DNA from: Escherichia coli
Lineage (GTDB): Bacteria > Pseudomonadota > Gammaproteobacteria > Enterobacterales > Enterobacteriaceae
DNA length: 64,000 bases
Assembly: GCF_002854065.1 (NCBI RefSeq)
Contig: NZ_CP024147.1
Direction: 5' to 3' (one strand)
Part shown: one piece after another, positions 3,469 through 63,286 of the stretch
Layout of the letters: each line of letters starts with the position of its first letter
How positions within the stretch are numbered: position 1 is the first letter of the stretch
Translations under genes and position numbers: made by a program
Notes under the pieces: model-generated
Told to the model about the DNA's origin: nothing
Database searches by the model: none
What the model saw: only the letters and a program-made list of their open reading frames with translations

Positions 3469-3632
3469 GCCTTATCTCCACCTCTTCGCGTCATTACGCG
3501 ATATTCATTAAAGTGGCGAAAGCATGCAGCAATCACAAAAAAATGAAAATAACAAAAAGAGAAAACACTTTTGCCATTTTGCTAACAAACAGGAAGGAGA
3601 TGCGAGGGAGAACGCGCTCCCTCGAGAGGAAA

Positions 3633-3722
3633 TCAGTGCAGCGCGGCAGTCAAACCCACGGCTACGATCAAACCGAGGACGATAATCGTTGTTACCAGTG
3701 AAAATTTAAGGTCGGTGCTCAT
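3633..3722 (-). CDS. ynhF: 29-aa single-helix small membrane protein
   Basis: Hand translation of the minus strand: ATG (complement 3720-3722) ... MSTDLKFSLVTTIIVLGLIVAVGLTAALH, stop at 3633-3635; AAGGAG Shine-Dalgarno 8 nt upstream. Too short for the ORF track. Confidence 0.7.
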   Translation of the reverse strand: MSTDLKFSLVTTIIVLGLIVAVGLTAALH

Positions 3723-3960
3723 CAAGTTTTCTCCTTTTTTATTACCACACAAAAAGTGATATTACGCATTTTTACACACTGTGATGAAAAAATCTCCCGT
3801 CATTTATAATGATAAGTGTTTTTACCACTTCCCCTTTTCGTCAAGATCGGCCAAAATTCCACGCTTACACTATTTGCGTACTGGCCATTGACCCCTTCCT
3901 GACGCTCCGTGTCGTTTTTCCGGCGTACCGCAACACTTTTGTTGTGCGTAAGGTGTGTAA

Positions 3961-3976
3961 AGGCAAACGTTTACCT
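3961..3976. promoter_or_regulatory. PurR operator O1 (PUR box) in the purR leader
   Basis: AGGCAAACGTTTACCT fits the PUR-box consensus ACGCAAACGTTTTCNT; 45 bp upstream of the purR start. Confidence 0.7.
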
Positions 3977-4020
3977 TGCGATTTTGCAGGAGCTGAAGTT
4001 AGGGTCTGGAGTGAAATGGA

Positions 4021-11016: not shown

Positions 11017-11050
11017 GGCGCAACCTTCACGGGTTGCGCCTGTATTTTTA
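11017..11050. terminator. Bidirectional intrinsic terminator between convergent mdtK and ydhQ
   Basis: Stem GGCGCAACC / GGTTGCGCC with T-rich runs on both strands. Confidence 0.65.
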
Positions 11051-12304
11051 CGCAGGCTGGAGCGTTGCGCCAATCCCGTCTTCGTCTGGCTGTAGTTTCA
11101 GTGCATTACACAGAGTTTGCCGACTGGCATCTGTTATCTCAACGCGTATATCCCCGGTAACTTCCCCTTTCACATTGATGAAGTCAGGTGAAATTTCTTT
11201 CGCACTGGTTTGCAGGCAAATCGCTCCCTCTCCGCGCAGGCGTTTCACTTTCAGTTGCACATGCGTTGCCGCACCAGTGATCAGCCACAGTTTTCCGCCA
11301 TTCAGATTGATGTTACCAATACTGAAAGTGACACTGTCACCTTTTACCGTACTGCCGTCGAGAATCAATACACCGCCCTGCTGTACAGTAATCGTTGATT
11401 GTTGCAGATCTGCGCCATAGCCAATAATCATTGAAGCGCCGTCCAGTAATGCAACACTCCCGGTCAGTTCAACCGGTGCGCGATCTTCCTCTACGACAAA
11501 ATTTTCGTCCGCGCTGGTGGGTGACAACAGGATCACTGTTCCACCTTGTATTACCGCATTTTCCAGCGTACCGGCATGCACTTCAGCCCGACCACCCACA
11601 TTAACGGACAGGTTTTGCGTCTTACCGGAACTGTAGAGCTGAAGACCATCCGTCCCCAGACGATAGATGGCTCCATTCTCAACAATAGTGTCAGAGTCTT
11701 CACCACCGAGATTATTCATGGTGCCACCAGCAAGCAACGTATCATTGGCTTTCCCCGCCAGCATAAAAACGCCGCCCTGATTAATCTCACAATTGCTGGC
11801 TTCCCCACCTGGATACACCAACAATTCACCACCTTCATCTACCACGACCGCTGAGGTTGTCCCATTGACCAACAGGCCGCCCTCTTGATCGAGAATAATT
11901 TTTTCCGCGCGATGGCCTTCCAGTACACGCAGGTTGCCGCCATTTTCCAGCAACAAACCGCAGGCATAACCTTTATCAACGCTGAATTCACCTTCGGGAT
12001 GGCGGCCATTAACCGTAGCGAGCGTAGAGAGACTAATTGCGCCTCCCTCGGACTGAACAATATCTGTGGCAATGGCACCGTCGCTGACCGATAGCGTGCC
12101 ATTGTTATCGTACTGTGTGCATTTGGCGATCCCACCGGTTGCCACTTTCAACCAGCCAGCCCCCGTGACCACGGTATTTTCGGCTCTTCCGCCAGCTTCA
12201 ACAATCAACTCGCCTTCAGTAAGTTGCGTCGCGCCAATGACCTCGCCGGTCTTAACAATTTGCACATTCCCGTCGCTCATCAAGTTTTTCGCATCAGATC
12301 CCAT
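11048..12304 (-). CDS. ydhQ: AIDA-type beta-helical repeat protein (adhesin-related) with no obvious signal peptide or beta-barrel
   Basis: 418-aa ORF with Gly-rich motifs recurring about every 19-20 residues (AGGRAENTVVTG, EGGLLVNGT, QGGVFMLAG, QGGVLILDG, NGGKLWLITG). Confidence 0.8.
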   Translation of the reverse strand: MGSDAKNLMSDGNVQIVKTGEVIGATQLTEGELIVEAGGRAENTVVTGAGWLKVATGGIAKCTQYDNNGTLSVSDGAIATDIVQSEGGAISLSTLATVNGRHPEGEFSVDKGYACGLLLENGGNLRVLEGHRAEKIILDQEGGLLVNGTTSAVVVDEGGELLVYPGGEASNCEINQGGVFMLAGKANDTLLAGGTMNNLGGEDSDTIVENGAIYRLGTDGLQLYSSGKTQNLSVNVGGRAEVHAGTLENAVIQGGTVILLSPTSADENFVVEEDRAPVELTGSVALLDGASMIIGYGADLQQSTITVQQGGVLILDGSTVKGDSVTFSIGNINLNGGKLWLITGAATHVQLKVKRLRGEGAICLQTSAKEISPDFINVKGEVTGDIRVEITDASRQTLCNALKLQPDEDGIGATLQPA

Positions 12305-12556: not shown

Positions 12557-12585
12557 TTGCCACCTTCCCACTCTGCCGCTAATAT
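12557..12585 (+). promoter_or_regulatory. Putative sigma70 promoter for the valV-valW tRNA operon
   Basis: TTGCCA, 17-bp spacer, TAATAT, then GC-rich discriminator TCGTCCCC about 25 bp before the first tRNA; A/T-rich tract upstream. Confidence 0.45.
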
Positions 12586-12611
12586 TCGTCCCCGTTGTCA
12601 CCTACAACGTT

Positions 12612-12688
12612 GCGTTCATAGCTCAGTTGGTTAGAGCACCACCTTGACATGGTGGGGGTCGTTGGTTCGAGTCCAATTGAACGCACCA
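12612..12688 (+). tRNA. valV: tRNA-Val (anticodon GAC)
   Basis: 77-nt cloverleaf: acceptor GCGTTCA/TGAACGC, D-arm GCTCAGTTGGTTAGAGC, anticodon loop CTTGACATGG, T-arm GGTTCGAGTCC, 3' CCA. Confidence 0.95.
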
Positions 12689-12692
12689 TCCT

Positions 12693-12769
12693 GCGTCCGT
12701 AGCTCAGTTGGTTAGAGCACCACCTTGACATGGTGGGGGTCGGTGGTTCGAGTCCACTCGGACGCACCA
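12693..12769 (+). tRNA. valW: tRNA-Val (anticodon GAC), second copy
   Basis: 77-nt cloverleaf identical in core to valV but with acceptor stem GCGTCCG/CGGACGC; 4-nt spacer between the copies. Confidence 0.95.
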
Positions 12770-12800
12770 GATTTTCTTAATCTGGTCTTCTCCTTTTTCC
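12766..12800 (+). terminator. Intrinsic terminator after valW
   Basis: Stem ACCAGAT / ATCTGGT followed by CTTCTCCTTTTTCCC. Confidence 0.6.
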
Positions 12801-12876
12801 CTCTGCTTCTTCTCTGTATCCAATACGTTAAAAGATTTACACTGTCTTCGTATGCGTTATCAGAAGGAGAATCGCT

Positions 12877-13182
12877 ATGGCAACTTTGTTACAACTTCAT
12901 TTTGCTTTTAATGGCCCATTTGGCGACGCAATGGCTGAGCAGCTTAAACCACTTGCTGAGTCGATTAATCAGGAACCTGGTTTTCTGTGGAAGGTATGGA
13001 CAGAAAGTGAAAAGAACCACGAAGCCGGCGGGATCTACCTTTTCACTGATGAAAAAAGCGCCCTTGCCTATCTGGAAAAACACACTGCCCGACTGAAAAA
13101 TCTCGGCGTTGAGGAAGTTGTCGCCAAAGTTTTCGATGTCAATGAGCCACTGAGTCAAATCAATCAGGCAAAACTCGCCTGA
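12877..13182 (+). CDS. ydhR: Small conserved protein of unknown function
   Basis: 101-aa ORF with RBS GAAGGAG 6 nt before the ATG; position after the tRNA-Val pair. Confidence 0.8.
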
Positions 13183-20512: not shown

Positions 20513-20567
20513 GGTGATGCTGCCAACTTACTGATTTAGTGTATGATGGTGTTTTTGAGGTGCTCCA

Positions 20568-20843
20568 GTGGCTTCTGTTTCTATCAGCTGTCCCTCCTGT
20601 TCAGCTACTGACGGGGTGGTGCGTAACGGCAAAAGCACTGCCGGACATCAGCGCTATCTCTGCTCTCACTGCCGTAAAACATGGCAACTGCAGTTCACTT
20701 ACACCGCTTCTCAACCCGGTACGCACCAGAAAATCATTGATATGGCCATGAATGGCGTTGGATGCCGGGCAACCGCCCGCATTATGGGCGTTGGCCTCAA
20801 CACGATTTTCCGCCATTTAAAAAACTCAGGCCGCAGTCGGTAA
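20568..20843 (+). CDS. insA: IS1 InsA (transposition repressor / N-terminal part of InsAB' transposase)
   Basis: 91-aa [46 protein letters not shown]... with zinc-finger-like Cys pairs. Confidence 0.95.
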
Positions 20844-21265
20844 CCTCGCGCATACAGCCGGGCAGTGACGTCATCGTCTGCGCGGAAATGGACGAACAGT
20901 GGGGATACGTCGGGGCTAAATCGCGCCAGCGCTGGCTGTTTTACGCGTATGACAGGCTCCGGAAGACGGTTGTTGCGCACGTATTCGGTGAACGCACTAT
21001 GGCGACGCTGGGGCGTCTTATGAGCCTGCTGTCACCCTTTGACGTGGTGATATGGATGACGGATGGCTGGCCGCTGTATGAATCCCGCCTGAAGGGAAAG
21101 CTGCACGTAATCAGCAAGCGATATACGCAGCGAATTGAGCGGCATAACCTGAATCTGAGGCAGCACCTGGCACGGCTGGGACGGAAGTCGCTGTCGTTCT
21201 CAAAATCGGTGGAGCTGCATGACAAAGTCATCGGGCATTATCTGAACATAAAACACTATCAATAA
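20762..21265 (+). CDS. insB: IS1 InsB (catalytic part of InsAB' transposase, made by -1 frameshift)
   Basis: 167-aa [19 protein letters not shown]...HYLNIKHYQ in the -1 frame relative to insA. Confidence 0.95.
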
Positions 21266-21280
21266 GTTGGAGTCATTACC

Positions 21281-31621: not shown

Positions 31622-31690
31622 AATAAGAAAACCCTTAAGTCTGTGCGACACAGGCTTAAGGGTTTCTACCCCATCCGGCGCTTATCTCCG
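31622..31690 (-). ncRNA. rydB: Probable small RNA RydB
   Basis: Minus-strand 17-bp hairpin (31629-31665, one A-C mismatch) followed by UUUUCUUAUUU, at the sufA-ydiH position where RydB is annotated in K-12; the 5' end is estimated. Confidence 0.4.
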
Positions 31691-31887
31691 GCACTCTCAG
31701 TGGCTTAGCTCTTGAAGGGGCGATAAGAATAATCTCATAAAGCTAACCCGCCGTTTTAACACAAACTGCGATTAGTATTATTTTTGAACAATATCAGGCG
31801 GGTAGATAAGCAGTATTAAGAAGGTCATCGAACCTGGACGGAGGTTAATCCAGGTCGATTTGGCGAACTTGCGGCATTAAGTCAGGA

Positions 31888-37325: not shown

Positions 37326-37430
37326 ACGGTTATAAATCAACATATTGATTTATAAGCATGGAAATCCCCTGAGTGAAACAACGAATTGCTGTGTGTAGTC
37401 TTTGCCCATCTCCCACGATGGGCTTTTTTT
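37326..37430 (+). ncRNA. rprA: RprA small regulatory RNA
   Basis: Sequence ACGGTTATAAATCAACATATTGATTTATAAGCATGGAAATCCCCTGAGTGAAACAACGAATTGCTGTGTGTAGTCTTTGCCCATCTCCCACGATGGGCTTTTTTT matches RprA as I recall it, including the terminator hairpin and U-tail. Confidence 0.88.
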
Positions 37431-37568
37431 TAACATTTTTCCGCTTCGCTACCTCGCCCCTCACTCTTTCCAATAATGTTGCACAAGATACTGTGACTCT
37501 CTTCAAGCCGTCAGCAGGCTGATAATGTTATTTATATTTTATTGTTTATTTCATGCAGCCATTACACG

Positions 37569-62886: not shown

Positions 62887-62945
62887 GGTATCCGTTCTGC
62901 TGAAGTGTCATGGCGTTGATTTTACGGTGACTCTTCGACAGTGAA

Positions 62946-62975
62946 AAGAAAAAAGGCCGCAGAGCGGCCTTTTTA
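62946..62975. terminator. Bidirectional intrinsic terminator downstream of ihfA
   Basis: Stem GGCCGC / GCGGCC flanked by an A-run upstream and T-run downstream. Confidence 0.6.
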
Positions 62976-62986
62976 GTTAGATCAGA

Positions 62987-63286
62987 TTACTCGTCTTTGG
63001 GCGAAGCGTTTTCGACCCGGCTTTTTAACTTCTGCCCGGGTCTGAAGGTCACCACGCGCCGTGCTGTAATGGGAATATCCTCGCCCGTTTTCGGGTTACG
63101 TCCCGGGCGTTGATTCTTATCACGCAGATCGAAGTTACCAAAACCAGAGAGTTTCACCTGTTCGCCGTTTTCCAGAGCGCGACGGATCTCTTCGAAAAAC
63201 AGTTCAACCAGTTCTTTGGCATCCCGCTTGCTAAGCCCAAGCTTATCAAACAGATATTCTGACATTTCAGCTTTTGTAAGCGCCAT
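62987..63286 (-). CDS. ihfA: Integration host factor alpha subunit
   Basis: 99-aa [55 protein letters not shown]... Confidence 0.97.

Follow-up and report, generated by a model that had tools for sequence, protein, structure and literature searches.

The valV-valW locus of Escherichia coli: two tandem tRNA-Val(GAC) genes that differ by three compensated base pairs at a conserved mdtK-linked position

The stretch of DNA analyzed here (referred to as the window, 64 kb in length) contains exactly two tRNA genes, both recognized by ARAGORN as tRNA-Val with a GAC anticodon. They constitute the chromosomal valV-valW operon of Escherichia coli, in which two valine tRNA genes with this anticodon are arranged in tandem. 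Both match the Rfam tRNA model (RF00005) well above its gathering score of 29. ARAGORN and Rfam place the genes precisely where a previous reading of the sequence alone (the sequence-only reading) had placed them, and the gene names proposed in that reading are borne out by identity to the annotated genes of strain K-12:

12612-12688, + strand: valV, tRNA-Val(GAC), corresponding to tRNA-Val2B (ARAGORN; Rfam tRNA, 70.1 bits; identical to K-12 b1665); acceptor stem GCGUUCA/UGAACGC, T stem GUUGG/CCAAU, CCA encoded
12693-12769, + strand: valW, tRNA-Val(GAC), corresponding to tRNA-Val2A (ARAGORN; Rfam tRNA, 69.6 bits; identical to K-12 b1666); acceptor stem GCGUCCG/CGGACGC, T stem GGUGG/CCACU, CCA encoded

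The tRNA with this anticodon reads GUC and GUU codons. Both genes and the differences between their sequences are already documented, and add nothing new to genome annotation.

Pairwise alignment shows that valV and valW are identical at 71 of 77 positions. The six differences (valV/valW) are T/C at 12616/12697, A/G at 12618/12699, T/G at 12662/12743, A/C at 12676/12757, T/C at 12678/12759 and A/G at 12680/12761, which correspond to positions 5, 7, 50, 64, 66 and 68 in the canonical tRNA numbering. Together they make up three Watson-Crick pairs swapped on both sides: from valV to valW, 5:68 changes from U-A to C-G, 7:66 from A-U to G-C, and 50:64 from U-A to G-C. The probability that six random sites form exactly three complete stem pairs is 7.8e-6, indicating that structural constraint, expected of any tRNA, underlies the pattern. 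The acceptor strands quoted in the sequence-only reading (GCGTTCA/TGAACGC and GCGTCCG/CGGACGC) agree with the alignment, as does its statement that the acceptor-stem changes are compensated and that full pairing is kept, given that every one of the 21 cloverleaf pairs is standard in valV and in valW, with 49:65 being G.U in each. Its description of the copies as identical through the D, anticodon and T arms is accurate for the first two arms and fails for the T arm, where they differ at 50:64; similarly, the T-stem strings CCAAT and CCACT are correct as 3' strands, but the changed pair is the second of the stem and not the closing one. Minimum free energy folding of the single tRNAs tells little about such modified, tertiary-structured RNAs, as it mis-predicts the T arm and yields z-scores of only about -2.

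The locus is nearly universal in the species. An 801-nt stretch around valV-valW finds a match in 5425 of 5426 complete E. coli genomes, in many cases at 100%, and 5414 complete genomes carry the 197-nt core with an identity of at least 99%. In K-12 MG1655, b1665 (valV) and b1666 (valW) occupy the same positions as in the window, with ydhQ and ydhR on either side; promoter, leader, both genes and spacer are identical in sequence, and the only 2 mismatches over 501 nt lie in the flanks, one ~140 nt before valV and the other 37 nt beyond valW. One isolate departs from this arrangement. In E. coli CEC96047 (NZ_AP026104.1, 1548584-1549490), an IS3-family element stands in place of valV and its promoter, leaving only the last 9 nt (the valV 3' CACCA plus the spacer) before an intact valW. 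This is a natural strain with a single Val(GAC) copy.

Both RNAs are known from cells. The valV and valW genes have been tabulated as encoding Val2A and Val2B (PMC3378859), and each RNA has been isolated from E. coli RNA using a separate 30-mer probe (PMC1851638), from which it follows that both are made. The published Val2A probe matches exactly at 12737-12766 on the - strand, within valW, and the Val2B probe at 12656-12685 on the - strand, within valV; each has a single match in the window, and these exact matches assign tRNA-Val2B to valV and tRNA-Val2A to valW. The differences between the two genes therefore already serve to purify the two tRNAs separately. The RNA sequences of tRNA-Val2A and tRNA-Val2B date from the classical RNA sequencing of the early 1970s. 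Val2 tRNAs are also known to be aminoacylated in vivo (PMC4176162, Table 3).

The elements that govern expression of the pair can be placed in the window as follows:

12557-12562, + strand: -35 hexamer TTGCCA (consensus scan, 5/6 match, 17-nt spacer)
12580-12585, + strand: -10 hexamer TAATAT (consensus scan, 4/6 match)
12593-12611, + strand: 5' leader, which RNase P removes from the dicistronic precursor (position deduced from the published starts; identical to K-12)
12689-12692, + strand: 4-nt intergenic spacer TCCT (UCCU in the RNA), from sequence
12770-12835, + strand: T/C-rich, G-poor trailer (C 17, G 7 and T 30 of 66 nt), a probable Rho-dependent termination zone

A single sigma-70 promoter drives both genes, which are transcribed together into a dicistronic precursor (PMC2190699). 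This promoter, with a -35 box matching at 5/6 positions and a -10 box at 4/6, was reported from primer extension (PMC2190699), and the consensus scan agrees with it (TTGCCA, 17 nt, TAATAT at 12557-12585). Two transcription starts have been mapped 18-19 nt ahead of the first nucleotide of mature valV (PMC2190699), which places them at about 12593-12594 in the window, and a C-rich stretch, TCGTCCCC, lies between the -10 box and the transcription start. The UCCU spacer lacks an RNase E site, so that separation of the two tRNAs depends on RNase P acting at the valW 5' end; cleavage by this enzyme at both mature 5' ends separates valV and valW (PMC2190699, PMC4176162). Termination is Rho-dependent, ydhR lies outside the transcript, and the trailer is removed by the 3' exonucleases PNPase and RNase II (PMC2190699). 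The base composition of the trailer at 12770-12835 fits a zone of this kind, and it is probably here that Rho acts. A weak A/U-rich hairpin at 12766-12786 also fits a terminator-like scan, for which 0.9 such sites are expected by chance.

Other RNA families were also matched in the window. The Rfam model RF02194 (HPnc0260, a bacterial antisense RNA) matches 12731-12893 on the - strand with 110 bits (gathering score 59), extending over the valW-ydhR spacer and the 3' half of valW. At its 3' end this model is itself the complement of a tRNA T arm plus acceptor. Weaker matches antisense to the last Val(GAC) gene recur in Proteus, Enterobacter, Rahnella and Salmonella, in which other DNA follows that gene. 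For these reasons the match was not taken for a real antisense gene, and is probably driven by the tRNA complement. Four further gathering-level Rfam matches correspond to known enterobacterial sRNAs, expected in this region of the E. coli chromosome:

3630-4020, - strand: STnc550 sRNA
31661-31721, - strand: rydB sRNA
37326-37433, + strand: RprA sRNA
62887-63045, - strand: STnc540 sRNA

The occurrence of the pair outside E. coli was analyzed by scanning species-representative genomes for a tRNA 3' end followed, 1-30 nt further on, by a Val(GAC) core, which recovered at least 120 loci. A match required a tandem arrangement and, in one copy or more, fixed letters at positions 8-43, so that invariance of the D and anticodon arms among the matches means little, and covariation in the stems is unaffected. 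An exact valV followed by an exact valW was found in at least 47 loci (47 of 120 among the matches listed), distributed over at least 15 genera of Enterobacteriaceae. These include Escherichia, Citrobacter, Enterobacter, Kosakonia, Cedecea, Mangrovibacter, Shimwellia and Siccibacter, as well as Silvania, Superficieibacter, Phytobacter, Pluralibacter, Lelliottia, Pseudescherichia and Pseudenterobacter. Variations on this arrangement also occur. Salmonella keeps the first copy, and its second copy has changed at two more compensated pairs (6:67 U-A and 50:64 A-U); Pluralibacter, Kluyvera, Entomohabitans and relatives carry a third copy (GCGTTTA) between the other two; and Pantoea, Erwinia and Tatumella have arrays in which a valW sequence is flanked on both sides by other covarying variants. 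Many Enterobacterales have one Val(GAC) form only (among the matches listed). In Cedecea neteri, Enterobacter sp. Cy-643 and Cedecea davisae an extra exact valV-type copy, which is a dispersed duplicate, lies 2-4 kb downstream of the valV-valW pair.

The arrays share a common genomic context. An MdtK orthologue (71-97% identity) was found at 85 loci among the matches listed, in most of them within a few hundred nucleotides of the array (typically ~150-400 nt). Since the linked arrays span Enterobacteriaceae, Erwiniaceae, Yersiniaceae and Morganellaceae, they represent one orthologous locus. The comparison with other enterobacterial loci that had been suggested alongside the sequence-only reading thus recovers the valV-then-valW pair at this mdtK-linked position across many genera. 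In most Enterobacteriaceae mdtK lies ~155 nt upstream of the array and ydhS ~120-220 nt downstream. Only in Escherichia is the tRNA pair flanked by ydhQ (11048-12304, - strand; AIDA-repeat, adhesin-like) and ydhR (12877-13182, + strand; Pfam PF08803), so that both flanks have gained a gene there, with no integrase present.

Across the 30 distinct Val(GAC) sequences among the matches listed, the cloverleaf is 99.8% paired, compared with at most 51% in slid controls, and double changes affect 12 of the 21 pairs. The three pairs that distinguish valV from valW, namely 5:68, 7:66 and 50:64, also show more variation than any other pair, with 4, 3 and 4 types, respectively. The only unpaired cell of 630 belongs to the third copy of Pantoea stewartii (663-739 of scanned locus L014), in which C49 stands opposite U65 and breaks the otherwise invariant G49.U65; this might point to a decaying copy or to a sequencing error.

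A different kind of array occupies the same mdtK-linked locus in Serratia, Rahnella, Proteus, Morganella, Xenorhabdus and Photorhabdus. These genera carry the same tRNA as 2-5 identical copies with uniform 20-30-nt spacers and without a V-type copy; in Serratia, Rahnella, Xenorhabdus and Photorhabdus the repeated unit is the valW-type sequence. Identical copies with uniform spacers are the pattern expected of concerted evolution, and a literature search turned up nothing specific on such evolution of tandem tRNAs in bacteria. The valV-then-valW heterogeneity is old and stable across Enterobacteriaceae, and in sister families the arrays at this locus have stayed homogeneous.

Taken together, we infer that valV and valW are an old tandem duplicate which has acquired neutral compensatory changes, and that the copies are functionally redundant, a reading to which we assign a probability of about 0.82. 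According to this interpretation, an old tandem duplication would have been followed by the accumulation of three compensatory base-pair substitutions, which would account for all six differences. The substitutions would have fallen at the three stem positions least constrained in identity, where selection would keep pairing and not sequence. Aminoacylation identity and predicted affinity for EF-Tu would be unchanged, and two redundant genes would together set the dosage of tRNA-Val(GAC).

Published determinants of valine identity are consistent with this. The elements reported for E. coli ValRS are A35, C36, A73, G45 and the pairs G3-C70 and U4-A69, with G20 as a minor element (PMC9976931). 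All the former are present and identical in valV and valW, so that a changed ValRS identity element was rejected as an explanation of the differences. G20 is absent from both copies alike, position 20 being U in each in the numbering of a 9-nt D loop. This minor element was defined on tRNA-Val1. A difference in EF-Tu affinity acting through 50:64 was rejected as well. In the T-stem model of EF-Tu binding, which considers pairs 49:65, 50:64 and 51:63, U50-A64 and G50-C64 each contribute 0.0 kcal/mol (PMC3239215, Table 2), so that the predicted affinities are equal; 7:66 lies near the EF-Tu contact surface and outside this three-pair model. The existence of strain CEC96047, which lacks valV, also counts in favour of redundancy. 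Against a neutral reading stands the observation that exact valV and valW have remained distinct across many genera without homogenization, despite the homogeneous arrays of the Serratia, Rahnella and Proteus type, which could reflect selection keeping two forms different.

One way in which such selection could act is through the architecture of the operon itself, an explanation that we consider improbable, though less so than the other alternatives. It holds that compensated divergence is what lets two tRNAs with the same anticodon sit 4 nt apart in a dicistronic precursor processed by RNase P only. With identical stems, nothing would keep the 3' acceptor strand of valV from pairing perfectly with the 5' acceptor strand of valW, and the resulting small-loop hairpin would hide the cleavage site; the changes at 5:68 and 7:66, with 50:64, would put mismatches into this inter-tRNA helix, and chimeras produced by unequal crossing-over would also be mismatched. 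Spacer lengths follow the expected trend: among the 151 adjacent Val(GAC) pairs in the matches listed, spacers range from 10 to 30 nt where the neighbours share an acceptor stem (n = 36, median 24.5); where the stems differ, the median is 7 nt and 51 of 115 spacers are at most 4 nt long, a correlation which is, however, phylogenetically non-independent. A similar trend is apparent in 12 tRNA clusters of K-12, where all 16 same-stem spacers are at least 28 nt long and 8 of 19 different-stem spacers are shorter than 10 nt (Fisher p = 0.004), valV-valW being the only same-anticodon pair with a spacer below 10 nt.

Folding predictions point in the same direction, within the bounds of an equilibrium model that includes neither co-transcriptional folding nor tertiary interactions. 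With ViennaRNA, the probability that both acceptor stems form is 0.73 in the native precursor and drops to 2e-5 and 6e-5 in the in silico constructs W-UCCU-W and V-UCCU-V, respectively, with an inter-tRNA helix probability of 0.97. Predicted equilibrium structures of the full-length transcript had likewise been reported to place the RNase P sites within stems, and processing during transcription was favoured (PMC2190699). Nevertheless, ViennaRNA predicts the swapped fold for every natural identical array, all with spacers of 10-30 nt, so that equilibrium prediction is no guide to what cells tolerate. In Pluralibacter, Entomohabitans and Enterobacter sp. JUb54, moreover, valV is followed by the GCGTTTA copy, which has one pair different, at spacers of only 2-5 nt; these neighbours are predicted to swap and yet they exist. 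Also, a neutral account explains the spacer lengths equally well, with young duplicates that have flank-sized spacers being homogenized as tRNA-plus-spacer units, and old ones diverging as their spacers shrink.

The same observations could be generalized into a rule by which bacterial tRNA neighbours with spacers shorter than about 10 nt must have different acceptor stems. It holds in the 151 Val(GAC) neighbour pairs among the matches listed and in the 12 K-12 clusters, but its strict form is contradicted by the natural near-identical neighbours with 2-5-nt spacers, and we regard the rule as unlikely to be general. Were it true, reflecting a constraint on folding and processing and not the age of the duplication, it would offer a simple principle for designing polycistronic tRNA operons, of use in building synthetic tRNA arrays and in studying how RNase P-dependent processing works.

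Functional specialization of the two isodecoders is less likely still, and we give it very little credence. Here Val2A and Val2B would differ in EF-Tu affinity or decoding speed, in stability or modification, in susceptibility to tRNA-targeting nucleases or in a role outside translation, and selection would keep both. The joint persistence of exact valV and valW across at least 15 genera would fit this proposal, as would the location of 50:64 and 7:66 in or beside the EF-Tu-contacting region of the tRNA (PMC3239215). On the other hand, the EF-Tu model scores both 50:64 pairs alike and the reported ValRS determinants are unchanged, as described above. The same three pairs vary freely in relatives, the Salmonella second copy differing yet again; many Enterobacterales among the matches listed carry a single form; and a natural E. 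coli isolate dispenses with valV altogether. Finally, a literature search returned nothing specific on a functional difference between Val2A and Val2B.

Horizontal acquisition of one copy or of the whole locus as a tRNA tied to a genomic island or prophage remnant, a reading that could draw on the Escherichia-specific ydhQ and ydhR and on an IS1 located ~7.7 kb downstream in this strain, was rejected on annotation, absence of att-like repeats and conserved synteny, and is effectively refuted by the last, given that the array occurs at the same mdtK-linked position throughout the Enterobacterales (among the matches listed) and that the IS1 is strain-specific, lies within ydhY and is unrelated to the tRNAs. 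The sequence-only reading had likewise seen no integrase or island at this tRNA locus, and this holds up: in a collinear E. coli genome, none of the 27 features annotated up to 12 kb away on each side is an integrase, and when up to 3 mismatches are allowed, the last 18 nt of valW recur in the 64-kb window only at the 3' end of valV. The IS1 is 768 bp long (~20513-21280, + strand), and Pfam matches confirm its InsA and InsB. It sits inside the coding region of ydhY, bordered by a TGTGCCGC duplication, and strain Santai, collinear in other respects, lacks it.

In its organization, the old and probably redundant valV-valW duplicate resembles several other tRNA operons of E. coli. In the valU-valX-valY-lysV operon, the lysT cluster and leuQPV, too, the spacers are short or non-A/U-rich, and separation of the tRNAs depends on RNase P (PMC2190699, PMC4176162). 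The valY-lysV, valT-lysW and valZ-lysY spacers are 4, 2 and 3 nt long, respectively, similar to the UCCU of valV-valW. In operons of the valU, lysT and leuQPV type, however, the tRNAs on the two sides of a very short spacer differ in amino-acid identity, and 28-146 nt lie between identical neighbours. The systems also differ in how transcription ends, the valU and lysT transcripts having Rho-independent terminators and valV-valW being reported as Rho-dependent.
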